64,000 nucleotides of DNA from assembly GCA_001189075.1 (NCBI GenBank), contig LFCN01000006.1:524866-588865 (forward strand). Reading direction: 5' to 3'. Below are positions 3,296-64,000 of this stretch, in pieces. Source of the stretch: Parcubacteria bacterium C7867-004. GTDB lineage: Bacteria > Patescibacteriota > Minisyncoccia > Phycocordibacterales > Phycocordibacteraceae. The notes below the pieces were generated by a model that saw only the letters and a list, made by a program, of their open reading frames with translations, had not been told where the DNA came from and did not search any database. Position numbers and translations under genes: made by a program. Numbering within the stretch: position 1 is the first letter of the stretch; every line of letters starts with the position of its first letter.

Positions 3296-3315
3296 ATCTA
3301 GGCTAGAATACTCCC

Positions 3316-36228: not shown

Positions 36229-37247
36229 AGTTTCCGTACTATACCCTTCTCCGCATCCACTTCAACCATATCGCCATCCTTGAATACCTTTGTGGCGATC
36301 TTCGCGCCGATCACGCACGGCTTCTTGAGCTCCCGCGCGACGATCGCGGCGTGACACATGATCCCGCCCTCATCAGTTACGAATGCGGCGGCGCGATGCA
36401 TCGCAGAAAGGAAATCAGGCGTCGTCATCGGCGAGACGAGGATATCTCCGTCAGTCACGTTGGTCATCTGCATCTTGTTCTTCACGATGCGAACTCGCCC
36501 GGTAACCATTCCCTTCTGGGCAACCTGTCCCTTCACTTCCGAGACCTGATCGACTGCATCGAATAATCCTTCGAACTCATATTTCGGGTGCTCCTTAGCA
36601 AACTGCTCGAGCGACATGACGAATCGTTCTTTTCCATCAACTGATACCACCCCGTTCATCCTTGCTTCTAGCGTCTCGGATGACGGAAGATGAGGGAACT
36701 CCTCGCACAGCACCAAGTTCGCATGTTCGCGCTTTCCTCCGAGCGCGACGATGCAGTCCTTTATGTAGACATCGTTGCGCGCAAAGAATTCGTCAGTAGT
36801 GCGAAGCGTCATCACGAGCTTCATGACGTCCTCCGGCGTGCGCGTATCGGTGCCTGGGTAGTACCACATGGAGAAAAGCGGAGCGGCTACTTTTATGAGC
36901 TCGACATATGCTTCAAGCCGTTCGATGTCAGCCGTCGGTCCGGCAGCCCAGAATCCTTGTATCTGCTCTAGAAGCGGTTGGTACTCCGCTATAACCGACT
37001 CTATGAATGCTGTACCGCCCTTATTGAGCTCGAGCAGCGTATCGAGCATCCATTCGATCGCTTCGGTATGCTCCCAGATTTGCAGGTTCTCCTCAGTAAC
37101 GAAGAAGATCTCGAATACGGGGAATGGTGAAGTCAGTCCAAGCTTCGGGAGAAGATGGTCAAGAAATCCTCTTGCCCAGTATTCCTCGAGCGCGAGCGTG
37201 AAGTCGCGTTCGTAGGGCTTCGTAAATACGATCTTCTTGTCACTCAT
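36225..37247 (-). CDS. PEP-utilizing enzyme mobile domain protein, paralogue B (340 aa)
   Basis: C-terminal GGIMCHAAIVARELKKPCVIGAKIATKVFKDGDMVEVDAEKGIV; 4-nt ATGA overlap with neighbours on both sides. Confidence 0.8.
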   Translation of the reverse strand: MSDKKIVFTKPYERDFTLALEEYWARGFLDHLLPKLGLTSPFPVFEIFFVTEENLQIWEHTEAIEWMLDTLLELNKGGTAFIESVIAEYQPLLEQIQGFWAAGPTADIERLEAYVELIKVAAPLFSMWYYPGTDTRTPEDVMKLVMTLRTTDEFFARNDVYIKDCIVALGGKREHANLVLCEEFPHLPSSETLEARMNGVVSVDGKERFVMSLEQFAKEHPKYEFEGLFDAVDQVSEVKGQVAQKGMVTGRVRIVKNKMQMTNVTDGDILVSPMTTPDFLSAMHRAAAFVTDEGGIMCHAAIVARELKKPCVIGAKIATKVFKDGDMVEVDAEKGIVRKL

Positions 37248-38644: not shown

Positions 38645-38654
38645 GTCGCTTTCT

Positions 38655-48583: not shown

Positions 48584-48658
48584 TCACATTCCGCGGTAGC
48601 TCAGTGGTAGAGCGGTCGACTGTTAATCGATTGGTCGCAGGTTCGAATCCTGCCCGCG
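48584..48658 (+). tRNA. tRNA-Asn (anticodon GUU), CCA encoded
   Basis: TCCGCGG/CCGCGGA acceptor, GCTCAGTGGTAGAGC D-arm, anticodon loop CTGTTAA, GGTTCGAATCC T-arm, GCCA 3' end; terminator hairpin GCTAG..CTAGC+TTTTTT follows at about 48690-48715. Confidence 0.85.
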
Positions 48659-50151
48659 GAGCCAGAAGAGACATCAGCAAAATCAAGGACCAAATTAAAC
48701 GGAGAAGCTAGTGTAAAATCTAGCTTTTTTCCGTTTACAGTCGGGTTCTGAAGTATGGAACTCAAAAAGGCTCTTTGGTTAGCCGGTTCAGAACTATTCT
48801 CAAAAATAGACTTTGCCCTGCGAGCTACAGATATGACCGTAGCAACAGTAGTTTGGTAGTCGTAATCTGCCTTGCGGTATTCGGACATTTCAATTTCCAG
48901 GGTTTGTATCTGGTCCTGATACTCTTGGTGCTTTTTGTCATAGATGTCCTTAGTAATACTCTGGTCCAGGTAGGCTTCAAGCAATCGGTCATCCTTTGCT
49001 TTAAGTGCGTCATAGTCGTTCCGCATCCGGTTTATCTGAGCCTTATGAAATGCGACTTCGGCTTCAGTGTTCTTCCGAAGCTCATCGACAAGCTGATTCT
49101 GAGTATTCTCAGTAATCGTTGCAAAGTGCTCTAGAACCTCGTATACGGGCTTGAGAAGGTCCTTTTCAGGTACATACACCCTTTTGCATACTCCCTTAGC
49201 ATTCGTGCAAGAATAGTAGATAAAGCGACCCTTCTTGATTTCAGCACTCATTGAACAGCCGCAGTTTTGGCACTTGAGCAAACCCTTGAATATGAAGTCC
49301 CGGGATAGTGCCTTGAAAGGGGTTTTCCTGCGTTTGAGGCGTACATCTTCACACTTATCAAAGAGCTCCCTATCAATCAGGCGCGGATACTTGTGCGCAT
49401 ACGGACCATACTTCTTTGAGACAGCAGTACCGCAGTAAAAACTATCCTTGAGCATATTTTCAATGCAACTCTTGGAGAGCTTGAAACCCTTGAGGCTTCG
49501 TAAGCCAAGTTCCGAAATCTTTACCCTGATAGTCTCTAGGGAGTAGTTTCCTGTAGCATAAAGCTCAAATACTTTCTGAACCAAGTGCGCACGTTCTGGG
49601 TCTATGATTATGTCTTTACGTAAGCGCTTTTCTTGGTCCAAGTGAATATTCAGGTAGCCTAAACGGACTGCTCCTGTCCACTCGCCGTTCCTGCGCTTTT
49701 GCTCAAAGGCACGTCTAACATTGTCGCCGATAGCGTCTGAGTAGTACTTAGCCAGTCCAAGACTCATACCAAACTGAAACTTCTCAACAGCAGACATCTG
49801 GCTATTAATAATCTGACCGTCCGAAATGAAATGAAGTTCAATCCTATCTGCTACAGCAAGCTCATAGAGCCTGGCCACTCTTTTATCAAAGACGCTTCTT
49901 GAGAGCCGGTCTACCTTGTCAAAGCAGACTGCAATCTTTTCCTTCTTAATCGTTGTCTCAACAAACTCTAACAACTTATCAAACTCATCCCGCTTATCCT
50001 TATATGCGCTTTCATCAAAGCTAAATGATTTGATGACGATGAAATCTCTCTTTTTGCAGTAGCTGTCTACACGCTCAATCTGAGCAGGCAGAGAATTTCC
50101 TGCCTCCTTTTGTTCCTCTGTTGATACTCGTGAGACATTTACCGCTTTCAT
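48601..50151 (-). CDS. large serine recombinase (integrase), resolvase-type catalytic domain + recombinase domain + zinc ribbon + coiled coil
   Basis: N-terminal VSRVSTEEQ (catalytic Ser), DRLSRS, zinc ribbon CQNCGCSM...YYSCTNAKGVC, C-terminal coiled coil; the last roughly 19 codons read antisense through tRNA-Asn. Confidence 0.85.
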   Translation of the reverse strand: MKAVNVSRVSTEEQKEAGNSLPAQIERVDSYCKKRDFIVIKSFSFDESAYKDKRDEFDKLLEFVETTIKKEKIAVCFDKVDRLSRSVFDKRVARLYELAVADRIELHFISDGQIINSQMSAVEKFQFGMSLGLAKYYSDAIGDNVRRAFEQKRRNGEWTGAVRLGYLNIHLDQEKRLRKDIIIDPERAHLVQKVFELYATGNYSLETIRVKISELGLRSLKGFKLSKSCIENMLKDSFYCGTAVSKKYGPYAHKYPRLIDRELFDKCEDVRLKRRKTPFKALSRDFIFKGLLKCQNCGCSMSAEIKKGRFIYYSCTNAKGVCKRVYVPEKDLLKPVYEVLEHFATITENTQNQLVDELRKNTEAEVAFHKAQINRMRNDYDALKAKDDRLLEAYLDQSITKDIYDKKHQEYQDQIQTLEIEMSEYRKADYDYQTTVATVISVARRAKSIFENSSEPANQRAFLSSILQNPTVNGKKLDFTLASPFNLVLDFADVSSGSAGRIRTCDQSINSRPLYH

Positions 50152-50154
50152 GGG

Positions 50155-52815
50155 CTATAGAATATTTTCCTTAAGAGCCCCATCAAAAGCTGTTTCTTCG
50201 CTATTGTTGTAGAACGGAAGACCCCACACAACATATTTCCTATCTTCCCAGAGTTGTTCAACTTTGTGCTCTTCGTTAAGGGATACTAGGAAATTCTGCT
50301 TCCAAGCATCTGTTTCTTTGAGATGACTGCCCTTAGGCTCAATGAATACTTGGTAGTGGATACTCTTTGGCTTTGCTTTTTGGTAAAGGAAAAGTACGAA
50401 GTCTGGTTCGAGTGCCCTTCCATCGTCAAAATTGTAAAGCTTAAAAAAGCGCTCATTCCTTACTAGGTATACCTCGTCATACTTCTCACGGAGTTGCGTG
50501 TAAATCTTATCGACATATTTAACAAGGTACTTCTCTTCAGAAGTTCCGAAACAATCATTAAACACGTACCAAGACTTGTTACTGAGGTCTAGATAGATAC
50601 TAGTCTCTTGAGCATTGTTGATTGACTTCCCAAACTCCTTATCTTCGCTCTCATTCTCTGCGAAAGTAAGGACCTTTTCAGAGATTTTATCCTTGACCAA
50701 ATAGGGTTTAAATTCCTTACTCCCCTTGTATTCAAGTTTATCGCCAGATACACCCCTTGAGATAAGCTCTAGGACCTGCAAAACCGTGTCTAAGACATCG
50801 TCAGGACTTAAATTGTCTAGCTGGCTAGGTAGCCCAGAAACAGTCATTTTCACGCTTCCTAGGTAGTTCTTATTAGTAATAAAGTCATCGAGACTTTCAA
50901 GATTTGGGAAGTAAGTCTTGAGGTTAGAGAAAGAGTAAAATTCCAGCTTATAAATTGCCTTCTTTATAACGGTGGCACTGAGGTCCTTGATAGCAAAATC
51001 CCTTTCCTTCTTCTCTACACCTTTTTTGCTTTGTTCATCAAAAATACCGCTCGAAAGGTTAAAGCCGGTCCGTAGAGAAACTTTATAGAGAGTATCTCGC
51101 ACTGAGGATGGCAACCCAAAAACATCCTCTCGCGTGTACTTTTCTTGCTCATTGAGGAAAAGAAAGCCTGATTTGTAGAACTTACTTTCTTTGAAGTCAT
51201 CTTTAATGGTGAGACTGCGCTTTACTGTTTTATCGGCAATGATTCCGCTCGTTACGAGCGCGGAAGTAAGCTCCTGAATATACTTTGGGTTGTAGGTGCT
51301 GTGATAGTAAAGCTCTTCACAAATTCTCATCTCATTCTCAACGTCATCATCAAATTTCCTCTTCGATGCGTCATCGGTTTCGCTTAGCTTGAACGGACAG
51401 TATCGTGCACCACGACCAATGAGCTGGGCCTCTCGGATTGTTGTTTCACCAGGTCTGTTATTTGCAGAATCACGCGTATCGTACAGACGAACAATATCAA
51501 AAAGGTTCAGAACGTCCCATCCCTCATTTAGCTTATCTACAGCAAAAACTGCTCGATACTCATTGTCAGGAGCTTCTAGAGTATTGATGGCTACCTGTTT
51601 TTCCTCGCTCTCTTCCTTGCTGTTAACTGAGATTGTTTTATCGGCAGAGAAATCTTCCTTAAGCTCAGATACTAGGTTTTCAAGCGTAATCTTGTTCGAG
51701 TCGAAATACTCAAACATTCTTACGAGAACCTCGTCCTTTGCGTTTGCCTTTATTTCTGCAAGCTTCTTTGTAGTAAGTCCTTGCACGCTCTTGATAAACT
51801 CCTCCTGAAAAGCTTTGCTATCTGCAATGGTTTTAGACTTGAAAAGAAGCACCGGTTTAATAACCTGCTTGTTCTTCTCAAAGAGTTTTCTACGGTACTG
51901 GCTAAGTAAAATGGCCTGTAGACCACGGTCAAGTAAATTCGCATCCGCTTGAAGTACCTTCACATCCTTTGAATAGCCGTCCATTCGGAATTGCTTGAGT
52001 GGGTAGTCAAAAACAAGCCTGTCAGCATACTTTCTTGCTATATGCGGGTTACTGAAATCTACCGTTGCTGTGAACTCTAAAAGAATATTCTCAGCACTTG
52101 CGTTAACAATTCTATTGACCGTGCTCTCCCAAGAGATAATCTCTTCGGCTTCTTCTCTAGAAACCGAACCGTTTATGGTGACCTCACCGAGCACTCCGGT
52201 TCTGAGACCTGCTCTTGTCTCAACGTTAATATGGTGTGCCTCATCAGATATGAGCACAATTTTCTTATCCTGAAAGTCGTCAAAGGTAAGAGAGTTCTCT
52301 TGAGGATTGTTCAGTCTAGTATGAAGGCCTTGGATAGTTGAGAACGAGATATTAATACAGTCATCATTTCCAGCCTGAAAGTTATTTACTTCCTTAAGGG
52401 AAACTTTCTTTCCCCTAAAGGCGACGCTGCTGTTGAATAAGTACTTTATTGATGCGTCATTAAAGAAGTTATCTCGTGTCTTATCAATGATGTTTGTGCT
52501 GTTCACAAAAAAAAGAAAGTTTCTATACCCTTTCTCGTAGAGATAGAGAATCAGTCCGGCCATAATGAGCGTCTTACCACTACCAGTAGCCATACGGAAA
52601 AGAAGCTGATGCTTCTCAGGCTTGCCATCAAAGTTCTCGTTTAAGTAGTTTAGAAAGTACTGGAAAGCTCTTTCTTGGTAAGGTCTTATAGCAAACTTCT
52701 GATTGAGGTTTGCCGTTATGAGGTCAGGCACTTGAGTGGCTTCTATGCCACGCTTGCCAAACTCTGATTCAAGTATTCTGTTGAGTGTTTTAATTTCGTC
52801 CATAGAACTTAGCAT
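50155..52815 (-). CDS. res: Type III restriction enzyme, Res subunit (SF2 helicase-like ATPase + nuclease)
   Basis: Helicase motif I MATGSGKTLIM, motif II LISDEAHHI (DEAH), 886 aa, directly downstream of the mod gene. Confidence 0.8.
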   Translation of the reverse strand: MLSSMDEIKTLNRILESEFGKRGIEATQVPDLITANLNQKFAIRPYQERAFQYFLNYLNENFDGKPEKHQLLFRMATGSGKTLIMAGLILYLYEKGYRNFLFFVNSTNIIDKTRDNFFNDASIKYLFNSSVAFRGKKVSLKEVNNFQAGNDDCINISFSTIQGLHTRLNNPQENSLTFDDFQDKKIVLISDEAHHINVETRAGLRTGVLGEVTINGSVSREEAEEIISWESTVNRIVNASAENILLEFTATVDFSNPHIARKYADRLVFDYPLKQFRMDGYSKDVKVLQADANLLDRGLQAILLSQYRRKLFEKNKQVIKPVLLFKSKTIADSKAFQEEFIKSVQGLTTKKLAEIKANAKDEVLVRMFEYFDSNKITLENLVSELKEDFSADKTISVNSKEESEEKQVAINTLEAPDNEYRAVFAVDKLNEGWDVLNLFDIVRLYDTRDSANNRPGETTIREAQLIGRGARYCPFKLSETDDASKRKFDDDVENEMRICEELYYHSTYNPKYIQELTSALVTSGIIADKTVKRSLTIKDDFKESKFYKSGFLFLNEQEKYTREDVFGLPSSVRDTLYKVSLRTGFNLSSGIFDEQSKKGVEKKERDFAIKDLSATVIKKAIYKLEFYSFSNLKTYFPNLESLDDFITNKNYLGSVKMTVSGLPSQLDNLSPDDVLDTVLQVLELISRGVSGDKLEYKGSKEFKPYLVKDKISEKVLTFAENESEDKEFGKSINNAQETSIYLDLSNKSWYVFNDCFGTSEEKYLVKYVDKIYTQLREKYDEVYLVRNERFFKLYNFDDGRALEPDFVLFLYQKAKPKSIHYQVFIEPKGSHLKETDAWKQNFLVSLNEEHKVEQLWEDRKYVVWGLPFYNNSEETAFDGALKENIL

Positions 52816-54661
52816 TCAAAGCAACGTCTTCTTTAGATATTGCATATGTTTTGTCTTCGATTTCTGAGTACGGCACATACAGCAGATTCTTATCCAAAAT
52901 GGAAATTAAGAATCTTTGCTGGTCCTCAAAAGAAAGGCTCTCGAAATCTTTCTTCGTAGCGTCAACATCCTGAGGTTTTACTTTGTAGCTCAGGAAGGCT
53001 GTCTTCTTCATTTCCTCCCAAATAGTCATGAGGCTTTTTTTGTTCTTTACATCCTGTATTTTGTCCACAAAAAGCTGATTCGCCTGGGCGAGCTCGGCAT
53101 ATATAAATGAACCGCCCCCTTTCCAGTTCACAGATTCTGATATTCCTCCCTGCTCACCGTCAACTGCTTTTTTAAGTCTCTCAACTAGAACACTATCAAC
53201 ATAATCCATTTGTTCTACAGTGATAAACTGTCGTCCCATCTTCAAAGCAGTAGAAGCAGTAGTGCCGGAGCCACCGAAGAAATCCAGCACTAGGTCATCC
53301 TTCTTCGTGGAAAGTTCAATGATTCTTTGAATGAATCCTTCTGGTTTAGGGCCATCAAAGACTTTTTCTTTAAATAATTCTTTCAAGTGGCGAGTAGCAT
53401 TTGTTGTTGTAGGCAAGTCAGACCATAAAGTCGTAGTAACCTCTCCTCGCTCCTGTGCTTCAGACCAAAATCTTTTCCTTTGAGGACCGGCTTCACCGGT
53501 AGTGCCAAAGACAATCCTTTTATCTTTTAGTAAATCTTCGAATACGCTTTTTTCATTCTTCCAACTGTTGCCTGGTAACGGAGTATAAACTTCTCCAGTT
53601 TTGGGATTCTTAATTGGATATAACTGATTGGGGCGGATACCCCCAACCTGAAATGGGTCAGCAACCCACTTACCTCTAGGGTCGTTATCTGGGTTATTAA
53701 ACTTATCTTCATTAGCTGGAATTCTAAAGGTCTCTCGGTTCTTCTTGAGCCATTCTTTGTTTGTTGAGTACACCAAAGTGTGTGTATGTGCGTCAGAAAT
53801 AAGTGCGGTATTAGTAACTGATTTTGTAGAATTCCAAATAACATCGGCTACAAAGTTTTTCCTGCCGAACACTTCATCACACAGCACTTTTAAATAATGA
53901 CCCTCATCATCACTAATGCTCATCCAAATTAATCCGGAGTCATTCTTAAGAAGTTGTTTTGCAACCTCCAATCTATTCCTCATAAACGTGAGCCAAGTAG
54001 AGTGGTTGAAATTGTCGTTGTAGAGAAAGTCATTGCTTTCATTATCTCTGTTATAAGGCGGGTCGATATAAATTAACTGGACAGACTCCTTGTATTTAGC
54101 AAGAAGAGTCTGTAAAGCTAATAAATTATTACCCTTGAGAATAAGGTTGTCCTTAAGTCCCACTTCCTTAGCAATAATTTCTTTCCCTTTTTCATATCTC
54201 TTAAACTTTGTGAGTGCTTTTGGTTTTAGAAGTTTATCAATTTCATCAGAAGCCAAGGTCTCATTCCAAAACACTTCACTCCTCTTCGCATCATCCTTAC
54301 TTTGACCACCTTCAAGTACACAATCCTTATAGGGGAAGGCGAGGACCACCTCCTCACTATCGGTTAGGTAGTGCTTGTCAGAAATTAGACCAATCTTATT
54401 CTTGTACTCTGTAAAACTGTCAGGAAGAAACTGTTTGTTGGAAACGTAGCTTTGGAATTTAACCTTGTCGAAAACAAGGAAATCATCAACCTGCTGAAAA
54501 AAGGTTTCTGAGAGATCTTTTGAAGAGCGAAGTAGCTTTAATAAGCCAGCATCTAACTGAAGTGCGAGCTCAATAATCTTATTCTTAGCAAGCTTTCCTT
54601 CTACAACGAGCCGGTCATCTTTTGAGAGTGCTTCCGTTAGCTTTTGATGGATGTTTTTCAT
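52790..54661 (-). CDS. mod: Type III restriction-modification system Mod subunit (N6-adenine DNA methyltransferase)
   Basis: IYIDPPYN (DPPY catalytic motif IV), FFGGSGTTASTA SAM-binding motif I in the beta-class order; 26-nt overlap with res. Confidence 0.85.
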   Translation of the reverse strand: MKNIHQKLTEALSKDDRLVVEGKLAKNKIIELALQLDAGLLKLLRSSKDLSETFFQQVDDFLVFDKVKFQSYVSNKQFLPDSFTEYKNKIGLISDKHYLTDSEEVVLAFPYKDCVLEGGQSKDDAKRSEVFWNETLASDEIDKLLKPKALTKFKRYEKGKEIIAKEVGLKDNLILKGNNLLALQTLLAKYKESVQLIYIDPPYNRDNESNDFLYNDNFNHSTWLTFMRNRLEVAKQLLKNDSGLIWMSISDDEGHYLKVLCDEVFGRKNFVADVIWNSTKSVTNTALISDAHTHTLVYSTNKEWLKKNRETFRIPANEDKFNNPDNDPRGKWVADPFQVGGIRPNQLYPIKNPKTGEVYTPLPGNSWKNEKSVFEDLLKDKRIVFGTTGEAGPQRKRFWSEAQERGEVTTTLWSDLPTTTNATRHLKELFKEKVFDGPKPEGFIQRIIELSTKKDDLVLDFFGGSGTTASTALKMGRQFITVEQMDYVDSVLVERLKKAVDGEQGGISESVNWKGGGSFIYAELAQANQLFVDKIQDVKNKKSLMTIWEEMKKTAFLSYKVKPQDVDATKKDFESLSFEDQQRFLISILDKNLLYVPYSEIEDKTYAISKEDVALNAKFYGRN

Positions 54662-54664
54662 AAA

Positions 54665-54862
54665 TTATTTCGTACTCGCCTTTTTAAGAAAATCATCAAA
54701 CTCATCCTTATCAATTCTGTACTCTCGGCCAATCTTATAAGCACTCAAACGACCAGCTTTTATATAGCGGTAAATGGTCATGATATTCACATCCAACAGA
54801 CTTGCGAGGTCTTCCGCCTTGTAAAACTGCTTTTCTTTAGCCATACCCACTAATTTACTCAA
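54665..54862 (-). CDS. excisionase/AlpA/MerR-like helix-turn-helix DNA-binding protein (65 aa)
   Basis: YKAEDLASLLDVNIMTIYRYIKAGRLSAYKIGREYRI is the Xis-family HTH pattern; immediately upstream of mod. Confidence 0.6.
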   Translation of the reverse strand: MSKLVGMAKEKQFYKAEDLASLLDVNIMTIYRYIKAGRLSAYKIGREYRIDKDEFDDFLKKASTK

Positions 54863-54896
54863 TAATTATACTTGACACTACTTTACACATCAATTC

Positions 54897-55811
54897 CTAC
54901 CCAGTGGACAAGCTTTTCTTGTACGGCTCGTACTCCTCTAGGCTCTTATCTATCTGGTTGACCCAGTCTCTGAGCTTGTTCTTGGTTATCAGAGTGCTTG
55001 CTTGTTGCATATCCTTAGCTATGCGATACCAGGTCCTATCATTCGACCTTTTCGAAAGAATGGTTCGCAACTGCCTCATCCCATTCTCGTCTCTAGCAAG
55101 CATGAACAAACCTAGTAGATATATGGCTTGCTTTGGTTTCAGATTTTTATCTGCTAAAAACAAGGTTCTCAACACATCCTTAATGCTTACAGATATTGAG
55201 AATAAGCCCAGATTCCTCTCTTTTATCAGCCTCTTCCAGTAATCGCTTACAACCCTCTTGCTCATCTCGGTACTGAAAATCTGTGTGAATGTAGGGTTCT
55301 TGTCATATCCCAAGTCTTCGAGCACTTTGTTCATCTTCTGCTTGTGGTTCAATCTGATTTCAAATCGTATGACTTCTTTTAGGTCCTTGCCTTTGGTCAG
55401 TTCCGTAAATAGGGTCCTGTGGTAGCACGTTTGGTCCTTATCAATCGCACGCTTCTTATCCTTACTCAAGTCAGCAATCTTGTCATAGATAACAAGTTGG
55501 TGTGAAGTGGTATGAGCATAAAGGCTCTGACCGTCATTCATAAATCTCGTCTTTGAAAAATCAAAGCTCTTTCTCAGGTTGACCTTGTTCATTTCTGAAA
55601 TCAAGTGGTTTGCTGTGTAGCCATCTTCCAGCCGGATGTTCTTAGAGAAGTGGACTGAACTTACTGATGCTTTCTCTAGTACTGGCTTTGAGACTATTAC
55701 ACCCATAGTCCTGAGTCTTTCTTGTAGAGTCGCAATTACCCTTGGAAAGTCCTTTTCCTCAAGCTCTTCAAGATTATTCAGGTATATCAGCTTGGGTGCA
55801 GAAAACTCCAA
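54897..55811 (-). CDS. hypothetical protein (304 aa), island cargo
   Basis: ORF track, AT-rich, Lys-rich; no family recognised from sequence. Confidence 0.5.
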   Translation of the reverse strand: MEFSAPKLIYLNNLEELEEKDFPRVIATLQERLRTMGVIVSKPVLEKASVSSVHFSKNIRLEDGYTANHLISEMNKVNLRKSFDFSKTRFMNDGQSLYAHTTSHQLVIYDKIADLSKDKKRAIDKDQTCYHRTLFTELTKGKDLKEVIRFEIRLNHKQKMNKVLEDLGYDKNPTFTQIFSTEMSKRVVSDYWKRLIKERNLGLFSISVSIKDVLRTLFLADKNLKPKQAIYLLGLFMLARDENGMRQLRTILSKRSNDRTWYRIAKDMQQASTLITKNKLRDWVNQIDKSLEEYEPYKKSLSTG

Positions 55812-56167
55812 ACGAACATTGGCTTCTTGTGAGTAATGGCGCTGATAACCAGTTAATCTAGGAAAGTAGTTTCCAGTCTCCTTCTCTGCCTTACTCGGAT
55901 TCCGGACATACTTTTCATACTGGTCTGTCTTTGAATACAGTTACCAGTTTGATACTCCTGAGAGGTAGGTCATTCTATCCTTTGGTATCAAGAGGCATAC
56001 AGTATCAATCATTTTTCGCTTTCTTTATCTGGTAAAGTTCAGGATTTTGCTTCTTGTCCTCTTGGATAAGCCAAACAAAAGCACTAACAAGCTTCCCTCT
56101 GTCTTCCAGAGTTAGGTTATTTACTTGAAAGCTCTGTTCAGGCCTCAATTTGGTTGCAATTACCTGC

Positions 56168-56212
56168 ATAAAAAAACCCGTAGGTTGTACCTACAGGCTA
56201 TCTTTTTCGGCT
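56168..56212. terminator. hairpin (CCGTAGGT..ACCTACAGG) flanked by an A-run and a T-run; probable bidirectional terminator inside the island
   Basis: AAAAAAACCCGTAGGTTGTACCTACAGGCTATCTTTTTC read directly. Confidence 0.45.
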
Positions 56213-56254
56213 AAGCCGGTATAAGAACTTTGTGAACTACGGAAAGTATCTGTA

Positions 56255-56998
56255 CTACAGTTCTTTTCGCTTTTTCTCCATCAGCGAGATTATTTTTCCG
56301 ATATGACCGTAATCGAGATGTTCTCCAAACTTATCGCTCACAAGTCCCATAATTTCTCGTCTTGGCAGGTCTTTGTTGTAGTAGATAAACTCGTTTCTTT
56401 CTTTGATTTTCGGCTTCTTTCTTTTCACAGAGCCTATCTTCAGTTCCTGTCTCTTATACTTCTCTTGAAGAGGTTTGATTACTTCAGTATATGTATGTTT
56501 TATGTGGTCAATGATGTCTCTCTCGCTAGCAAATGGACTTATCCCTAGGACCACAGGGTAAATATCCTTGTCATTAATTCTTGTTGAAAATATTTCTTCA
56601 TTCCTTAGTACAAATTTCTTATAGTCCCACACATTACAGAGAGCCACGTAGGGTTCAGCACTGAATTCGTCCGCAACGATATACTCAGTAAGCTCTGTAC
56701 TCCACATCAACGGGTCAAGGCCATATTCAAGCAGGAGTGTATACAGGTCTTCTTGAAAAAGCTTATTGCGTTCAAGTTCGTCCGTAAGCTTAGGAAACAA
56801 GTCCATAAAGTCGTCAGAACCCCTTATTCCCTGCTCCGAAAGTCCATACTTCTTTCGCAGAGAAATTATAGACGTCGAAAACTTCTCTGTGTTTAATACT
56901 TCTTCGAAATAGTTGAATAACTTCTTATAGCCACTTGTTTTTGACAAGGAATTTTGAATATCATCGGGGTCAGAGAGGCTATTGAAGTCCAGCTTCAT
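56255..56998 (-). CDS. hypothetical protein (247 aa), island cargo
   Basis: ORF track; no family recognised. Confidence 0.5.
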   Translation of the reverse strand: MKLDFNSLSDPDDIQNSLSKTSGYKKLFNYFEEVLNTEKFSTSIISLRKKYGLSEQGIRGSDDFMDLFPKLTDELERNKLFQEDLYTLLLEYGLDPLMWSTELTEYIVADEFSAEPYVALCNVWDYKKFVLRNEEIFSTRINDKDIYPVVLGISPFASERDIIDHIKHTYTEVIKPLQEKYKRQELKIGSVKRKKPKIKERNEFIYYNKDLPRREIMGLVSDKFGEHLDYGHIGKIISLMEKKRKEL

Positions 56999-57156
56999 TC
57001 CTTTACTCTAGCTGACAGTGGACTACAGTTCAATCAATGAGTAGAGCAGTTCGCTTTTATCAGCAAAGTTGCACTAGTAGGACAGGATTGGTCAGTTTGC
57101 GTAGGTAGATAGTCTGAAAGGACGGCCGGAAACCCTCTCTACAAGCGGCACCTGCC

Positions 57157-57492
57157 CTATTTACTGCGCCAATAGCCTTTTACATACGTCCCATTTGCTC
57201 GATAGTATCCATTCACCCAAACAGTCTTTGAGACGGCGGGCGTGACCTTAGGCCAGGTCTCCTTCGCTGCCGCGGGTGCTACAACTCTTTTGATCGTAAC
57301 TGGTGTCGCTTTAGGAGCAACCTTCACTGGACAGCCAGAGGTATATCCTAAATCTCCGCAGGTATAACTACCTGTATCTGACGGGCAAGAGTGCCAACGG
57401 TGACAGCCTGACTGGTGGGCAGATACCGATGAAGGCACGAGAGTGAAGGCCAGTGCTGCTAGCAATAGGAGTCCAGGAAGAAGGTTTTTCAT
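57157..57492 (-). CDS. small secreted protein with signal peptide, Cys-rich N-terminal segment and conserved-looking YxxNGTYVKGYWR tail
   Basis: MKNLLPGLLLLAALAFTLVPSSVSA signal peptide; CHRWHSCPSDTGSYTCGDLGYTSGC; C-terminal VNGYYRANGTYVKGYWRSK. Confidence 0.5.
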   Translation of the reverse strand: MKNLLPGLLLLAALAFTLVPSSVSAHQSGCHRWHSCPSDTGSYTCGDLGYTSGCPVKVAPKATPVTIKRVVAPAAAKETWPKVTPAVSKTVWVNGYYRANGTYVKGYWRSK

Positions 57493-57500
57493 AATGACCC

Positions 57501-58058
57501 TTAGAACTTCTCACCTTTCTCCTTGAGAATTTTTTCTACACTTGAGACGGTGTTCTTCGAAGCATCGTTTAACTCCAACTTACCATTTAGAAAACTCTCA
57601 TATTCTGCATCTAACACAATAGAAGGTTTTATTTGTTTAATGCGATTTAAGAAAGATTTAATTTTCTCGTCTGAGTAACTACCCTCTCTTATCGAGTTGT
57701 GGTAAAGCGTACCATCAGATCTTAAGATATATAGATTCATTCTAGATCCAAACCAAGGCAATACGTATTGAGAAAAACGATAGATATATTTTATGCTTAA
57801 TACATCTATTTTATCCTTACCGAAAGTTTTATAACCTGAATTTATCAGTGTACGCGCGTCTTGAATCTCAAGGTATGTGCTAAAGAACGTCCTTATATTT
57901 ACTAATAGGATCATTAGTAGCAGCAACAGGAAAAATATAGTCTGTCGATTTAGTTCATGGAAAAAGTCTTTGCTATATCCTTCAATAAGGAATACACCGA
58001 CTAGCAAAGCTGAAGTATATATTGGAACTAAATTCGATCTAAACAGCTCTTTCTTCAT
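57501..58058 (-). CDS. polytopic membrane protein, candidate immunity protein for the upstream Rhs C-terminal toxin
   Basis: AT-rich; two to three TM helices; start 5 nt after the Rhs stop codon. Its position directly downstream of the Rhs toxin-carrying C-terminus suggests an immunity role. Confidence 0.45.
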   Translation of the reverse strand: MKKELFRSNLVPIYTSALLVGVFLIEGYSKDFFHELNRQTIFFLLLLLMILLVNIRTFFSTYLEIQDARTLINSGYKTFGKDKIDVLSIKYIYRFSQYVLPWFGSRMNLYILRSDGTLYHNSIREGSYSDEKIKSFLNRIKQIKPSIVLDAEYESFLNGKLELNDASKNTVSSVEKILKEKGEKF

Positions 58059-58062
58059 AATT

Positions 58063-61000
58063 TTACCTAGCAAAGATTCTCAACCCAGTTGACACTGAAT
58101 AATTTATAAGATTCTCAGCAAATGCTGGCATGAATGAAGCCGATGATCTTCCCAATGAAGATTCAACACTTTGTCCTGCCATTTTTGCTCCTGCTGCACC
58201 AATTGCTGAAATGCCTGCCTGACCCGCACCAACGTTACCTGAATCTAACATGTTTTGGGCTGCTGCTGATGCGCCCGCATTAAATACTATTCTTCCTATA
58301 GTTGCGTTAACTGAAGCGGCTCCTGCTATCGCGTCTGCTGCGGCTGAAGTTCCATACTGACCAGCAGTACTCTTTGTGCCATTATAGGCATCCCCGGTTG
58401 CTCTCGATGCAGCTCCCACTGCTGCAGAAGCATAGGCCCCAGCCACTACAGCTTCCTGTGCGGTAGCAACAGCAGCTCCCACCAAGCCTGCAACTTGCAT
58501 AGTAGCTACAGGCAAACCAAAGCCAACTTTAAGACCTTGCGTCATCACATTTTGTTTATAGTTATTTGCCGAAACCGGAATATTTGGGTTACGAGGACCA
58601 CCAAGCGCATGAGACATTATTGAGGTGTTCCCCGTAGGGTCTTTTTTAGTAATAGGATTGTTCTCCGCATAGCTATAGCTATTTAAGCTCTGCGGACTCA
58701 TAAGTAACTGATTGTGATCGAGACTGGTAAGAGCCTGAACCTTATTCGGATCACCAAGTGCCAGGAAGCTAGGGTCTTGGGAAAGGAAACCACCGCGCCC
58801 CCCATCGTAGTATCTTGCATTTAGGTACGAGAGGTCGGACTCGTCATCATGCAGCTCCCCGATGTAGCCTCGCTTCTCCTCGAATGAGCCGGACTGGGCC
58901 CGCTCCCCTCCGTAAGGATAGTAGTCAGTTACTTCAGATGCGGCACCCGCATTATTTGATGCAACATTTGTGCTGCCCAAATGATCGGGGTGGATATACT
59001 GGATCGTACTGGTAGCTCCAGCTGTCTCTACGGTCGCAATAAGCTCTCCGCCTGCGTATATACGCTTTGATGTAGTCGTGCCGGTGGTGTCGTAGAGACG
59101 ATTCACATAGCGGGTTGTAGTGCCTGCTGCGACCTTCAGGACACGCTGATTCGTGTGGTCATACGCGTAGGTGGTAGTTGCTCCCCCGCTCTGGGATGCG
59201 GTCATTCGATTCCGGTAGTCCCAGGCGTAGTTCTTTGCCCCGTATGCGGTGAGATTGCCGTTCGTGTCGTAGGCGAGGCTTGTAGAGGCAATGGACGTAG
59301 CTGCGTGCGGATTGGTGTATCCCGTCTCGCCGTACGTATAGCTTCCCTGATCTGACTTGCTCGTTATGTTCCCGATAGGGCTATAGGCATACGTCTGCAA
59401 GTATGGGGTCGAGGACGCAGCGGTCGTCGATGCGGACGTAAGGCGGTTCAGGCCGTCATAGACGTAAGTAACCTGTCTCGCTGCCTGAGTGCCTGAGTAA
59501 TCCTTTATGGCAGTTATGTTACCTACATTGTCGTAGAAGTAGTACGTGTCTTGAACAATATCTGACGTGCTGAGCGCACCTGTGGAGAATGTAGCCGTTT
59601 CAACGCTCCATTCCCCCGCGAAGGTGTGAGTGTCCCAATACTTTATCCTCCAGTAATAGGTTGTTCCGGGAACGAGTGCCGGCCCCACATATGGCAGGAC
59701 CTCGGTCCTCATATTGTTCGGTGTAGAGCTCGCAAGAGGGGTCTTTCCACTATCCCAGTACGGGCTTGTGAAGCTCGAAGAAGTTGCTACTTGGATCTGG
59801 TAGTACAGAGCCAGGTCACCACTATCAATATCGTGATGTATTGCCGAGAATTCGGGAGTATTGTCGGTCAAGTTTGTCGGGTTCGTCTGAGCATTCGTCT
59901 CGAGCGATGTCGGAGGGCCCGGCGGTGCGTACTGCGAAATAGTGAAGGTAGCGTTGGAACTCCATGAGCCCGCAGAGTCAGCAGTATCCCAGAACTTTAC
60001 CCGCCAATAGTACGGCGTTGAGGAAGCGAGAGTAGAGCCCGAATAGGATATATCTGGCGTACGACTACCGACCGGGGTCGAGCTTGAGAGCGCTGTCTTT
60101 CCACTATCCCAGTACGGGCTTGTGAAGCTCGTCGAGGTGCTGACCTGTATCAGGTAGTTGAGCGCGACGTCGCCAGCGTCCGAGTCCCCATAAATTGCTG
60201 AGAACTCAGGGGTAGGGTCAGTGACATCGTTCGGATTGGTACGGCTTTCCGTCTGAAGCGAAGTCGGCTCGGTCGGTGCGAGGTTGTATATCACCACGAG
60301 GTTCGGATCCTGGCTGGTTCCCGTGGTTTCCGCAGATGCGAATACCACAGTGAGCTCAATGGCATCAGTCGTCCAGTTGTTATTGAAGTCGTTATAGGAA
60401 CGGAAGCCGAGTTTTGATACGCCTGTTGGTGTTATAGCAGCAAGTCCGGTGCTATTGAGCGACAGAGATTCATAGGTGTTGAGTGTATAGGTCCCATCGG
60501 TAGTACCGAATGACGTGCTTCCAACCTGGTCATAATCGCCGAGTACGAGGGCAGTATTCGAAGCCGGAGTGGCAGCAACTGCGTATATGCGCTTCTCAGA
60601 ACTTCCAGCAAGAACGTTCGTGATGTACATGTTAACCGTTGCCGCAGTCACGATCGCAGCGTCTGGTAACACTGACGTATCGAATAGAAGGAAGGCACGT
60701 GCGAGACCAACCTTACCATTTGATTTTTCCTCATCACGAGCGTAGAGGTGAGCGCTCAAATCGTCTCCGGCGTTAGAGGCACTCGCGTTTCGGGTCGTAG
60801 TCCAGTTGCTGCTGTCGTTCTTCTCCATCGAACCGTCGACCGAGGTGACTTCTGTATTCGGATCAGGATAGAAGGTAACGGAAGCAGCGAGCGCGTGCTT
60901 CGGCAGGAAGAAGCTCAGTATCATTTCGATGATGGTCGGCTTCTCTTCCTTGGCGGTTACCTCCTTCTGATACTCGTAGGAGGCCTTGGTAGTGATGCCG

Positions 61001-64000
61001 TAGTCGGCAATCCACCACTCGCCTTTTTCGTCCTCATAGTACTGCGGATCGCCTGAGATTATCTCCGCGATAAAGGCGCCTGGCTCGTTTGTTGCGAAAG
61101 TTCGTGAGTGACTAGTTCTCTTGTCAGAAACCTCGCCCGTGATTGTCAGGCCTGCTTCCTGTGCCTTACGGTTGGTGTCTACGCCCACTGGAAGCGAGTC
61201 CACCCTCTGGTCACTCTTGTATGCGTACTTAATTATTCCTTCCTTGATCTCTTTAGAACCGAGATGCCGATCGAGCGGTGCCTTGAATTTTAGCTCTTCT
61301 GCATCAACCGGCAGTGATTTGAGATATTCAGCACGATCCTGGACCGGCGACATCTCATCTGTTGTCGTGGAGGTCTTCTCTTCAGCTGGTACAGTCTCCG
61401 GCGCTGCTGGTTCAACAACGGGAACTACTGGCTCGTCTACCACAGGAGGAGTTACCTCGGGAATTTCTATTGGAGGCTCTTCTGGTACCGGCTTTTCTTC
61501 TACTGGAGGAATTGGTTCATTGTTAGTCTCTGTTGGAACTTCTGGCTGGACTGGTTCTACAGATTCTTCAATTATTTCCTGCTGTGATGGAAGTACCGGT
61601 TCCGCCTGAACTATATTCAGGAGAGAAAGAAGATATGGGTCATTTGAGGCCAGCGCAAGATGACCGCCTTTAAGAATCGACAGTTCCTCGAAGTCCTCGA
61701 ATTGCCCTTCATCCTCCTCTCCTCCGCCACCTCCCATCATCATCTGCATACCGACTTGTCCCGTTAGAGAAGTCCGGATATTCGTCAGCCGATAGAGTTT
61801 TCCTGCCGAGTACGAGTACGTACTGACTGCGCCATTTCCAAACTCCTTATACTTCACCTTTCCAGTTGGCGCGTAGTCGAAATCAGCTATGACATTAGAG
61901 AATGATCCTCCTGATTCCTTTTGCGCAACCGACTCGAGCATGCCCGCGCTGTTATATAGGTAACGTACCTGCGAGGAGTCTGGGTAGGTGGTGTAAACGG
62001 GATTCCCGGCACGATCGTATTCGTAGAGTGTCGTAGCGGTAGTGCTGCTGATGGAACGTGCTTCCGTTGCGACGCGACCGAGTGGATCATAAAGGAAGGT
62101 AGCGACTGCTGAAGTAGAGGTTGCCGAGCAGAGCTGTCCTTTTCCGTCCGTGCACGCGTCGTATGCATAGGAAACCTCAGTGCCTCCCGTGCCTGCGTAG
62201 TCCTCAGTAAGGACACGATTGAGGTCGTCATAGGTGTAGCTTACAACCTGACTCTTCGGGTCGGTTGTCGAAGCGAGGTTGCTTGATGCGTCATACGCGT
62301 AGGACCAGGTGCCATAGGTGCCATCAGCTCCATCATGTATATCTTGCGCGGTAATCCGGCGACCCAAGCTGTCATAGGTGAAGTTACGGACATTGGCGTC
62401 CGCATCGGTTATCTTGGTCAGCTTCTTGTTCCCGTTGTATTCATAGGCACTCGTATACGCACTTACGCCGTTATGTTCAACAACAATAATAAGGTTGTCA
62501 TACGCGTCCTTTGTGAGATCAAGCTGCGTACCTCCCGCATCTGTAACAGTTGTCACCCAGTCATCGAATGCATAAGTCGTATTCCCTACAGAGTTTGATG
62601 CGATAGTCTTCCGCTGAAGCGGATCGTACGTATAACTCTGAAGAAGATAAAGTGCTGGTGCTGAACTTGTACCGGTATATGAGCTCGTATATACGAAATA
62701 CGGGAGCGATTCGCTCTCGAGCAGTCCCCGTGTGTCATAGACATACGTTTTTGCAGCATAGGTATTTGAGCCCTCAGCTTCCGAAAGCTCCTGCACCTTT
62801 CTTCCAAGGCCGTCGGAATACGTAAACGATTCAGCTGTGGTAGTTGCGTCCAGGTATTTGGTGCTTGCCACACGGCGCGGCATGCTGGTATCCGTGTAGG
62901 TGTAGGTGGCCTTTGTTACTAAGGTTGACGGAGTAACACTATCGGGCTGCTTTTCTTCTTTGACACGATCGAACGGATCATACGCAGTCTCAAACGCCCT
63001 TCCATTTGCATTAACCGTACGGAGCGGCTTCCCAGACGAGTAGTCAAATGTAGAAGAGACAGTTTGGCTGAGAGGGTTGGTCGTAGTTGCACGATAGAGA
63101 TTATAGGAATCGTAGGTGTAGGTCGTCTGCTTATCGCGTGGGTCTTTCTCGGTCAGGACCAAACCTCGTGAATCATAGGTCTTCTCGACATCGATCGTAC
63201 TTGATCCAGTCACCCAGGATTCCTGCTTCGTGAGATTACCCTTGTTTATCGAACCGAAGGAGAGAGTGTCGTAATAGTTCTTAGTCTCTCGAATAGTTGT
63301 GTTCGACTGGTTTAAGACTGTCTCTTGAGACTGGAGCGCAAATGGAACCGTCGAGCTCGCGGCATACGATAGGTTGGTTGTGAACTTGTCTGAACCAGTA
63401 TCACTGAAGGATCCGTCGGAGCTTCCCGTCACCTTGCCCCATTCGACCTTCTGGGTCAGATTCCCGGTCGAGTCATCATAGGTATAGGTTTCGGCCTTAT
63501 CGGCATGATCCGAATCCCCGTCATAAGAAAGCTTGGTAGATTGCGTCTTCTTAACAAAATTGGCTTTCCCCACCCGGTTATAGGTCTGCCAGGTATTTAC
63601 GCCGAGCGCGTACAAATGTCCGGAATTGTCATATGCCTCGCTGCGGAACATCTTTCCGATCTTCGACTGGTCGTCTGCGTATTCGCCTGAGGAAGTAGCC
63701 GTGGTATTGCCCTGGTGGAAATAGGACGTGATTACGTTTCCTCCGCTATCGGTTTGTGTCGTCGTACCGAAACCTGCGAGTCGGTGATCGAAAGGGTTGG
63801 CGTAGTAGTTGCTACCGTTCGAATAGGTATAGGTATTCGTCGTGGTCGCGGCTATGCCGTCAAATTTACTCACCGTATTGACGGTCATCAGATTGGCCGG
63901 GAATGTCGGATTAAGCATGGCATTGCTCGAGTCTCGGTAGAACGCGGACGCCTTGTAGGTCGGCACTACGGTAGCTCCTCCCTGTTCGCGCACTAAGGTG
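58063..64000 (-). CDS. Rhs/YD-repeat polymorphic toxin (over 1976 aa; N-terminus beyond window end) with C-terminal Gly/Ala-rich putative membrane-active toxin domain
   Basis: Dozens of YD repeats (YxYDxxGRL-like: TYTYDSYNLYRAT, YEYNGNKKLTKITD...). RHS core end ARYYDGGRGGFLSQDP...NSYSYAENNPITKKDPTGN (DPxGx autoproteolysis motif). A roughly 215-aa glycine-zipper-like C-terminal domain follows. Also an internal Pro/Glu-rich linker and two tandem FN3-like modules. Confidence 0.85.
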   Translation of the reverse strand, partial: TLVREQGGATVVPTYKASAFYRDSSNAMLNPTFPANLMTVNTVSKFDGIAATTTNTYTYSNGSNYYANPFDHRLAGFGTTTQTDSGGNVITSYFHQGNTTATSSGEYADDQSKIGKMFRSEAYDNSGHLYALGVNTWQTYNRVGKANFVKKTQSTKLSYDGDSDHADKAETYTYDDSTGNLTQKVEWGKVTGSSDGSFSDTGSDKFTTNLSYAASSTVPFALQSQETVLNQSNTTIRETKNYYDTLSFGSINKGNLTKQESWVTGSSTIDVEKTYDSRGLVLTEKDPRDKQTTYTYDSYNLYRATTTNPLSQTVSSTFDYSSGKPLRTVNANGRAFETAYDPFDRVKEEKQPDSVTPSTLVTKATYTYTDTSMPRRVASTKYLDATTTAESFTYSDGLGRKVQELSEAEGSNTYAAKTYVYDTRGLLESESLPYFVYTSSYTGTSSAPALYLLQSYTYDPLQRKTIASNSVGNTTYAFDDWVTTVTDAGGTQLDLTKDAYDNLIIVVEHNGVSAYTSAYEYNGNKKLTKITDADANVRNFTYDSLGRRITAQDIHDGADGTYGTWSYAYDASSNLASTTDPKSQVVSYTYDDLNRVLTEDYAGTGGTEVSYAYDACTDGKGQLCSATSTSAVATFLYDPLGRVATEARSISSTTATTLYEYDRAGNPVYTTYPDSSQVRYLYNSAGMLESVAQKESGGSFSNVIADFDYAPTGKVKYKEFGNGAVSTYSYSAGKLYRLTNIRTSLTGQVGMQMMMGGGGGEEDEGQFEDFEELSILKGGHLALASNDPYLLSLLNIVQAEPVLPSQQEIIEESVEPVQPEVPTETNNEPIPPVEEKPVPEEPPIEIPEVTPPVVDEPVVPVVEPAAPETVPAEEKTSTTTDEMSPVQDRAEYLKSLPVDAEELKFKAPLDRHLGSKEIKEGIIKYAYKSDQRVDSLPVGVDTNRKAQEAGLTITGEVSDKRTSHSRTFATNEPGAFIAEIISGDPQYYEDEKGEWWIADYGITTKASYEYQKEVTAKEEKPTIIEMILSFFLPKHALAASVTFYPDPNTEVTSVDGSMEKNDSSNWTTTRNASASNAGDDLSAHLYARDEEKSNGKVGLARAFLLFDTSVLPDAAIVTAATVNMYITNVLAGSSEKRIYAVAATPASNTALVLGDYDQVGSTSFGTTDGTYTLNTYESLSLNSTGLAAITPTGVSKLGFRSYNDFNNNWTTDAIELTVVFASAETTGTSQDPNLVVIYNLAPTEPTSLQTESRTNPNDVTDPTPEFSAIYGDSDAGDVALNYLIQVSTSTSFTSPYWDSGKTALSSSTPVGSRTPDISYSGSTLASSTPYYWRVKFWDTADSAGSWSSNATFTISQYAPPGPPTSLETNAQTNPTNLTDNTPEFSAIHHDIDSGDLALYYQIQVATSSSFTSPYWDSGKTPLASSTPNNMRTEVLPYVGPALVPGTTYYWRIKYWDTHTFAGEWSVETATFSTGALSTSDIVQDTYYFYDNVGNITAIKDYSGTQAARQVTYVYDGLNRLTSASTTAASSTPYLQTYAYSPIGNITSKSDQGSYTYGETGYTNPHAATSIASTSLAYDTNGNLTAYGAKNYAWDYRNRMTASQSGGATTTYAYDHTNQRVLKVAAGTTTRYVNRLYDTTGTTTSKRIYAGGELIATVETAGATSTIQYIHPDHLGSTNVASNNAGAASEVTDYYPYGGERAQSGSFEEKRGYIGELHDDESDLSYLNARYYDGGRGGFLSQDPSFLALGDPNKVQALTSLDHNQLLMSPQSLNSYSYAENNPITKKDPTGNTSIMSHALGGPRNPNIPVSANNYKQNVMTQGLKVGFGLPVATMQVAGLVGAAVATAQEAVVAGAYASAAVGAASRATGDAYNGTKSTAGQYGTSAAADAIAGAASVNATIGRIVFNAGASAAAQNMLDSGNVGAGQAGISAIGAAGAKMAGQSVESSLGRSSASFMPAFAENLINYSVSTGLRIFAR
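59560..60300 (-). repeat. intragenic tandem duplication (2 x about 360 bp) encoding FN3-like modules within the Rhs gene
   Basis: gtctttccactatcccagtacgggcttgtgaagctcg occurs at about 59743 and about 60103. Encoded copies ...FTSPYWDSGKTALSSSTP...YYWRVKFWDT... and ...FTSPYWDSGKTPLASSTP...YYWRIKYWDT.... Confidence 0.7.

Follow-up and report, generated by a model that had tools for sequence, protein, structure and literature searches.

The final 5.9 kb of a 64,000-nucleotide stretch of contig LFCN01000006.1 from Parcubacteria bacterium C7867-004 (hereafter the window) encode the C-terminal part of a giant Rhs protein, and the gene for a 185-aa membrane protein lies directly downstream. The sequence supports the interpretation of this locus as a polymorphic Rhs toxin, unusual in its domain layout, with a cognate immunity gene. 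Together with the 185-aa gene, the C-terminal domain of the Rhs protein (the tip) makes up a conserved cassette of two genes, which has its own AT-rich codon usage and is found behind different Rhs cores. Tip and immunity protein constitute a new and very rare family, carried on a variant of the SpvB-FG-GAP-Rhs scaffold that is specific to the Candidate Phyla Radiation (CPR). The elements at the centre of this finding are the following, with residue numbers counted in the open reading frame (ORF) of the window.

58627..58923, minus strand: Rhs-associated core, ARYYDGGRGGFLSQDP ... NNPITKKDPTGN (aa 1691-1788), matched by TIGR03696; core/tip boundary and predicted autoproteolysis site
58066..58626, minus strand: 187-aa C-terminal tip, after DPTGN; the Rhs stop codon is at 58063-58065
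57501..58058, minus strand: 185-aa cognate immunity candidate, with two N-terminal transmembrane (TM) helices and a soluble domain of ~120 aa

The 185-aa gene begins 4 nt past the Rhs stop codon. Homologues of its product were 42 to 52% identical (five of them 47 to 52%), and all were encoded in Rhs contexts, either after a member of the same tip family or as orphans beside another Rhs gene or immunity-type genes; no homologue outside an Rhs context was among those found. The membrane protein is thus not conserved apart from Rhs, as expected from an initial annotation of this DNA, which had proposed a giant Rhs toxin with a membrane immunity candidate. Where upstream DNA existed, the immunity homologue came 3 to 4 nt after a homologous Gly/Ala-rich tip, itself preceded by an Rhs core end (DPxG). 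This adjacency was seen in the window and at loci L001/L002, L003, L005, and L019, and it was also apparent at the loci of P0006 and P0011, which were available as gene calls only, so that tip and immunity gene are adjacent in at least six independent loci. Orphan copies of the immunity gene were present in L010, L008, and L004. The copy in L008 belongs to a decayed tip-immunity pair, and that in L004 lies in an apparent array of small two-TM immunity-type genes (33-1309), another member of which is homologous to the gene following the Rhs gene in L011. In these relationships the downstream gene behaves as a cognate immunity gene, which would protect its producer.

The tips of the window and of L001 were 35% identical over 148 aa (E 1e-15, composition-adjusted). 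The tip family aligns end to end, and the ORF therefore ends naturally and is not fused to foreign DNA; truncation or fusion of the Rhs ORF by a neighbouring genomic island (see below) was rejected, as the tip aligns to the ends of its relatives. The same tip was found on other Rhs cores in L001, P0007, P0011, and P0012. All tips found followed Rhs core ends except those of P0009 (a 169-aa sequence starting within the tip) and P0013 (a short fragment), for which no upstream sequence was visible. Both families are very rare, with about 10 sequences each. An exhaustive HMMER search of 1.84 billion representatives yielded four tips at an E value of 1e-3 or lower, a profile search of 5.8 billion clusters yielded seven, and a word-indexed search with only the tip as query yielded none among 5.8 billion proteins. 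Scanning metagenomes with the immunity profile added one locus, L019. There were no extra Rhs, tip, or immunity copies within the window. Further Rhs core fragments (orphan modules) lie downstream in L011 (5839-6847) and L005 (1394-1486); the window has no such orphans.

We then compared the base composition of core, tip, and immunity gene, as the DNA of the last two had been described as markedly AT-richer than the Rhs core. For the immunity gene this was correct (GC content of 0.33, compared with 0.52 for the core, and GC content at third codon positions [GC3] of 0.34). For the tip it was correct at third codon positions only. The raw GC content of the tip (0.480) is barely lower than that of the core (0.518), because Gly and Ala, with codons that are GC-rich at positions one and two, make up 36% of its residues. 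The GC3 of the tip was 0.289, compared with 0.562 for the core and with 0.543 ± 0.035 expected under the synonymous codon preferences of the core (z = -7.2); none of 5,000 simulations gave a value as low. The lowest GC3 of any 187-codon window within the core was 0.40, and sliding-window analysis located the fall at the DPTGN boundary. The shift hence survived quantitative analysis in the form of GC3, and the compositional break marks a swappable tip. Gly/Ala-rich tips conceal the classical AT-rich signature unless GC3 is used. Along the window, GC content was 0.55 to 0.62 up to 48 kb, about 0.40 at 48 to 57 kb, and about 0.51 over the Rhs gene. The GC3 of the Rhs core (~0.56, 58627-63993) was lower than that of typical host genes in window positions 1-48000 (0.66 to 0.77), and only the genes at 37244-42080 approached it (0.60 to 0.63).

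A search of species-representative genomes with the last 344 core residues recovered three CPR relatives, L009, L010, and L011, which are metagenome-assembled genomes of Saccharibacteria, Paceibacterota, and Nomurabacteria, respectively. They share the overall layout of the window's protein, including the linker and the block of DNRLRE-like and immunoglobulin (Ig)-like domains described below. The last 300 core residues (window-ORF aa 1490-1789) were 46 to 53% identical to those of the three relatives (E 1e-79 to 1e-111). The similarity stopped at DPxG; the tips were unrelated, and a different small gene followed each of them. GC3 dropped from core to tip in L009 (0.67 to 0.25), L010 (0.63 to 0.36), and L011 (0.33 to 0.25), as it did in L001 (0.59 to 0.29). 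Downstream of its own tip and immunity pair, L010 carries a member of the window's immunity family that is interrupted by a stop codon (49% identity, E 4e-39), which we read as the fossil of an earlier cassette. A conserved core with displaced tips is the classical Rhs pattern. The comparison with relatives thus bore out the proposal that the AT-rich shift reflects displacement of a tip/immunity module, since the relatives keep the core and carry unrelated tips, each with a GC3 drop. Rhs proteins of enterobacteria have a GC-rich core and an AT-rich tip. The locus resembles them in the abrupt compositional break exactly at DPxG and in the combination of conserved cores with unrelated tips. It differs in its CPR lineage and in that the break is masked in raw GC content and visible only at third codon positions.

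In the window, the Rhs gene is one intact ORF of 1,976 codons (58063..63993, minus strand) that runs on beyond the window end; there is no in-frame stop codon between the first codon of the listed ORF and the window end, and the gene is therefore truncated by the window. DNA from a near-identical assembly (L006) was used to obtain the full-length gene, which comprises 8.1 kb and encodes 2,702 aa (L006:1888-9996). The window holds the 3' 5.9 kb (residues 727-2702), and the first 726 residues lie outside it. Precomputed Pfam annotation places SpvB and FG-GAP domains in this outside N-terminal part; on a 2,683-aa gene call of the full protein it lists SpvB, FG-GAP_3, RHS_repeat, and Ig_Rha78A_N. 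Judged by eye, the protein start, MKLRRLKGVDKILRRGAASLLLFSFVLSPTASFA ahead of KA, appears to be a Sec-type signal peptide. The order along the protein is Sec signal, SpvB, FG-GAP, YD repeats, an inserted block, YD repeats, core, and tip, and the inserted block consists of a Pro/Glu linker, a 158-aa domain without family, a DNRLRE-like domain, and two Ig-like domains. Ahead of the core, the parts within the window are as follows.

58063..64000, minus strand: Rhs gene, 3' part (aa 727-2702 of the full protein), from the ORF list and the full gene in L006
61759..63993, minus strand: first YD/RHS-repeat region (aa 1-745), matched by PF05593 and TIGR01643, with PDB matches to YD shells
61354..61758, minus strand: Gly/acidic stretch, then Pro/Glu/Val-rich linker (aa 746-880), read from sequence; GC3 0.33
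60886..61359, minus strand: 158-aa domain without family match (aa 879-1036), with a signal-peptide-like hydrophobic end; present in L009
60274..60885, minus strand: DNRLRE-like beta-sandwich domain (aa 1037-1240), NF033679 match
59560..60267, minus strand: two tandem Ig/FN3-like domains (aa 1243-1352 and 1371-1478), PF25788 and rhamnosidase N-terminal matches
58924..59562, minus strand: second YD-repeat region (aa 1478-1690), ~210 aa, homologous to the cores of CPR relatives

The domain order given in the initial annotation was largely confirmed by these matches. The YD repeats were matched by PF05593 (E 7e-25, four stretches) and TIGR01643 (E 1.5e-16, five stretches), and the RHS core end was matched by TIGR03696 (E 4.5e-14; 52.7 bits with a cutoff of 32.5; profile positions 1-75 of 76). 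The closest solved structures, by PDB sequence matches of the YD region, are the shells of Tse15, Tse5, and an Rhs family protein (7q97). The core reads NNPITKKDPTGN and ends in DPTGN, a motif of the PxxxxDPxG type, and the residues of the autoproteolysis motif are readable in the sequence (YYD...SQDP...DPTGN). The linker that had been called Pro/Glu-rich contains 20 Glu and 20 Pro within 84 aa. The 158-aa domain that overlaps its end had no Pfam or NCBIfam match. What had been described as an Asp/Ser-rich domain is DNRLRE-like (NF033679, E 4.7e-5; 23.5 bits, below the curated cutoff of 34; profile positions 18-163 of 164), and this region also weakly matches TGFb_propeptide. The two tandem FN3-like modules were recovered as PF25788 Ig_Rha78A_N (E 5e-28, two stretches). 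In L010 (2-5563, plus strand) the insert, with a 158-aa-type, a DNRLRE-like, and an Ig-like domain, is present twice, near the N-terminus of the available fragment and at the position that it has in the window. A signal-peptide-like hydrophobic stretch, IIEMILSFFLPKHALA ahead of AS, lies inside the Rhs protein at about 60880-60940 (aa 1020-1038), just ahead of the DNRLRE-like domain, and is also conserved in L009; conceivable readings are a buried strand and a site of internal processing.

The 185-aa protein had been described as polytopic. It does have two TM helices, as seen by hydropathy, the Hessa scale, and AlphaFold2, but the description is better given as an N-terminal pair of helices followed by a soluble alpha/beta domain of ~120 aa. 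The soluble domain is the best-conserved part of the protein, and the TM region is variable. As the N-terminus is positively charged, an N-in/C-in topology is predicted. The AlphaFold2 model of the immunity protein reached a mean confidence (pLDDT) of 62, and a Foldseek search of the PDB with this model returned nothing at an E value below 1. Against Pfam, NCBIfam, and PDB sequences, matches were at chance level or below threshold only (WapI, E 0.079). PF17255 (EbsA-like, PH-like) matched four of six members of the immunity family at 16 to 20 bits, with a cutoff of 25.9, and did not match the window's protein.

The tip consists of 23% Ala, 13% Gly, and 10% Ser. It had initially been taken as a domain of roughly 215 aa with repeated small-xxx-small spacing resembling a glycine zipper, and neither point held. 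The tip after DPTGN is 187 aa long, and a glycine zipper was rejected by shuffling and by autocorrelation within the family, which were both at chance level. Pairs of Gly, Ala, or Ser at i+4 numbered 42, compared with 39.4 ± 3.5 in shuffled sequences (z = 0.7), and this spacing was no commoner than others. Triple small-xxx-small motifs numbered 15, with 17.7 expected, and GxxxG occurred once, with 3.1 expected. Across seven aligned members of the tip family, the lag-4 autocorrelation of small residues was 0.10 with a permutation standard deviation of 0.07. No Pfam glycine-zipper family matched the tip. Its small-xxx-small pairs are expected by chance because of the Ala/Gly/Ser-rich composition. 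The hydropathy of the family had a lag-4 autocorrelation of 0.285, a helical periodicity. Each tip has three hydrophobic segments at +2 to +7 kcal/mol on the Hessa scale, compared with a median of +19.8 for the Rhs core, and a conserved uncharged segment of 23 to 24 residues scores 1.6 to 1.9 by Kyte-Doolittle hydropathy over 19 residues. Charged residues (DEKR) account for 7 to 9% across the family, and His and Cys are absent, with the exception of a single His in the tip encoded by the window. Invariant positions carry P, P, A, G, A, A, R, A, G, S, Q, Y, A, and G, none of them acidic, and a polar motif, R-A-T-x-D...G..S...Q-Y, is conserved between the hydrophobic blocks.

Our best guess, with confidence a little better than even, is that the tip is a membrane-active toxin. 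The low charge, the helix prediction, the lack of a conserved His, Cys, or acidic residue, and the two-TM immunity protein point in this direction, and the family has no conserved acidic or nucleophilic residue of the kind found in enzymatic toxins. No match of the tip to a Pfam or NCBIfam family came near a curated cutoff, with hits at chance level or below threshold only (e.g., TrbL at 15 bits), and the tip profile had no relevant match among PDB sequences at an E value of 10 or lower, including Tse5-CT and colicin pore domains; the check for a known enzymatic toxin fold thus gave no enzymatic match by sequence. By analogy to other Rhs and Tc structures, the YD shell would enclose the tip, the core would cleave it between DPTG and N, and the inserted DNRLRE/Ig block would face outward and bind the surface of the target cell. 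Once delivered, the tip may partition into the cytoplasmic membrane of the target and dissipate the membrane potential, as Tse5-CT does. Protection of the producer would fall to the membrane-anchored immunity protein, by way of its TM hairpin, its conserved and probably cytoplasmic domain, or both.

Several observations weigh against membrane action. The hydrophobic segments of the tip are marginal and are not classical TM helices. A true stop-transfer segment could not be tolerated in a protein exported by Sec, so that marginal hydrophobicity is compatible with the membrane model; it fits a soluble Ala-rich bundle equally well. Small-residue spacing is at chance level, the tip profile does not resemble Tse5-CT, colicin pore domains, or any PDB chain in sequence, and the tip-family alignments, with 7 to 9 sequences, are shallow. 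The AlphaFold2 model of the tip, drawn with six helices, has a pLDDT of 39.5, too poor for a fold test, and a Foldseek search of the PDB with it gave nothing at an E value below 1, so that a different fold, enzymatic or otherwise, is conceivable for the tip. The enclosure of the tip by the shell, its cleavage, and the display of the insert on the outside would also have to carry over from the other Rhs and Tc structures. In addition, conservation within the immunity protein is highest in the soluble domain and not in the TM hairpin, which would also fit neutralisation of a toxin acting in the cytoplasm. The tip could accordingly be a soluble helical toxin of new fold, enzymatic or target-binding, which acts inside the target cell and is neutralised by the cytoplasmic domain of the immunity protein. 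The variable TM region beside that conserved domain, the marginal segments, the conserved polar motif, and a model that permits no fold test are all in keeping with such a toxin. On the other hand, a soluble enzyme would not usually have as few as 7 to 9% charged residues and lack conserved His, Cys, Asp, and Glu, and no enzymatic toxin family came near its curated cutoff in Pfam, NCBIfam, or PDB sequences. We assign this alternative a rather low probability. The original proposal of a membrane-inserting or pore-forming toxin rather than a nuclease therefore stands in part: low charge, helices, and a membrane immunity protein speak for it, but the zipper argument fell away and the segments are marginal.

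The closest counterpart for a membrane-active tip is Tse5, an Rhs effector of Pseudomonas aeruginosa's type VI secretion system (T6SS), whose 149-aa tip lacks any enzymatic signature, spontaneously inserts into lipid, and forms depolarising pores (PMC9637101). Two TM helices are predicted in its immunity protein, Tsi5 (PMC9637101), and the window's immunity protein likewise has two but differs in having an extra conserved soluble domain of ~120 aa. Both toxins have a YD shell and a core motif followed by a tip of ~150 to 190 aa without enzymatic signature, and the YD regions match by sequence (8cp6_B, E 6e-11). In contrast, no tip-to-tip sequence similarity was detectable, and Tse5 is PAAR-like, delivered by VgrG and the T6SS, and comes from a diderm, whereas the window's protein has a Sec signal, SpvB, FG-GAP, and the DNRLRE/Ig insert and comes from a CPR bacterium. 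LXG (EsxX, PMC12744356) and CdiA (PMC11630599) scaffolds are also known to carry membrane-depolarising tips that are rich in small residues and paired with membrane immunity, and EsxX requires both cytoplasmic and membrane immunity (PMC12744356). The cassette resembles EsxX and the CdiA-CT ionophores in its small-residue-rich helical tip, membrane-embedded immunity protein, and orphan immunity genes in islands. It differs from them in having another delivery scaffold and a tip without canonical GxxxGxxxG, with spacing at chance. One might speculate, by analogy to EsxX, that the window's immunity protein, with its TM helices and soluble domain, combines the cytoplasmic and membrane roles.

The scaffold itself resembles in layout the TcB-TcC cocoon of Tc toxins, which is composed of an SpvB domain, a beta-propeller, a YD shell, and a TcC core with a hypervariable region. 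SpvB, FG-GAP, YD repeats, an Rhs core with an aspartyl-protease-type motif, and a hypervariable C-terminal cargo are common to both, and the ~1,470 aa ahead of the insert are similar in length to TcB. The window's protein differs in being a single polypeptide with an extra domain block inside the YD region and only ~300 aa of YD repeats and core after it. No TcA-like gene was found in the 1.9 kb upstream of the Rhs gene, where there is no large gene, or downstream within the window, and the adjacent immunity gene, which sets the locus apart from Tc toxins, is a hallmark of an antibacterial system. WapA-type Rhs toxins of monoderm bacteria are Sec-exported, have tRNase tips, and lack SpvB/FG-GAP and the DNRLRE/Ig insert. 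The window's protein shares with WapA an N-terminal signal peptide in place of a T6SS adaptor, YD repeats, a polymorphic tip, an immunity gene directly downstream, and orphan modules in relatives. It differs in having SpvB/FG-GAP and the DNRLRE/Ig insert; WapI was only a chance-level Pfam match (E 0.079).

CPR (Patescibacteria) have genomes of ~0.7 Mb and live on other bacteria, and this Rhs gene takes up ~1.2% of the genome (8.1 of 686 kb). Rhs toxins of CPR bacteria hardly figure in the searchable literature, in which one passing remark was found, in a Saccharibacteria genome paper. The locus offers a defined, very rare toxin/immunity pair, which would be the second Rhs membrane toxin family after Tse5 if the membrane reading is true, and a conserved shell layout into which a putative binding module is inserted. 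Giant Rhs proteins with the same DNRLRE/Ig block are present in Parcubacteria/Paceibacterota, Nomurabacteria, and Saccharibacteria. A conjecture that we consider quite improbable as a whole is that they are contact weapons of CPR episymbionts, in which the outward-facing, carbohydrate-binding-like insert docks on the envelope of a host or competitor, the cocoon delivers a membrane-permeabilising tip through which host metabolites leak to the parasite, and tips are renewed by cassettes moving with large serine integrases, of which genes or fragments adjoin the cassette in several loci.

The Rhs stop codon is separated by 4 nt from the immunity gene, which in turn lies 8 nt ahead of the gene for a 111-aa secreted protein (57157-57492, minus strand), and no terminator-like site lies between the Rhs gene, the immunity gene, and this next gene. 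The 111-aa protein has a signal peptide and a CHRWHSCPSD...C motif; it had no family match and was absent at the other loci of the cassette. The GC content of its gene (0.51) is unlike that of the cassette and of an 8.5-kb integrative island (48590-57100) with ~40% GC in a genome of ~58% GC. The island contains the following features and, in addition, genes for proteins of 247 aa and 54 aa without assigned family.

48590-48664, plus strand: tRNA-Asn, antisense to the last ~21 codons of the integrase gene
48601-50151, minus strand: large serine integrase
50155-52815: type III restriction-modification res
52790-54661: type III restriction-modification mod
54665-54862: HTH_17 gene
54897-55811: Rep_trans-like gene (sub-threshold match)

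The antisense overlap of the integrase end with tRNA-Asn suggests that the island integrated into this tRNA gene. No tRNA-Asn remnant was found at the far end of the island, and repeats around the locus were at chance level. The AT-rich tip and immunity genes could also be the edge of this island, brought in at its integration, and not an independently displaced Rhs cassette. The island lies only ~0.4 kb downstream of the immunity gene; moreover, serine-integrase genes or fragments lie beside the cassette in L001, L003, and L010 and ~7 kb off on the P0011 contig. This origin is nevertheless unlikely. The 0.51-GC gene at 57157-57492 lies between cassette and island, the integrase end of the island is at the tRNA-Asn gene 10 kb off, with no displaced old tip beyond it, the GC3 of the cassette (0.29 and 0.34) is lower than that of the island genes (0.40 to 0.53), and all other loci of the cassette lack this island. 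The window's integrase was also compared with the integrase fragments beside the cassette elsewhere; it is not closely related to them, and a match between them was rejected. Serine integrases may still be linked to Rhs tip turnover in CPR bacteria. That the C-terminal region is no toxin but the low-complexity tail of a surface adhesin, or its membrane anchor, with an unrelated gene downstream, would suit the low-complexity Ala/Gly/Ser composition and lack of database annotation but is very improbable. The region follows a complete Rhs-associated core and DPxG motif, it is conserved over its whole length in about 10 sequences, and relatives have unrelated tips in its stead; moreover, the same gene always comes ~4 nt after it, and this gene is also found as an orphan or pseudogene and within an apparent array of small membrane immunity-type genes.

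The integrase sequences adjoining the cassette elsewhere are C-terminal parts of a large serine integrase, at 3284-4180 (minus strand) in L001, 5929-6270 (minus strand) in L010, and 1137-1895 (plus strand) in L003. They match phrog_95 (E 1e-9) and are ~40% identical to one another. The L001 ORF is convergent with the immunity gene, the L010 part lies between the current cassette and the orphan immunity pseudogene, and the L003 part shares a reading frame, on the Rhs strand, with an orphan Rhs core fragment to which it is fused.

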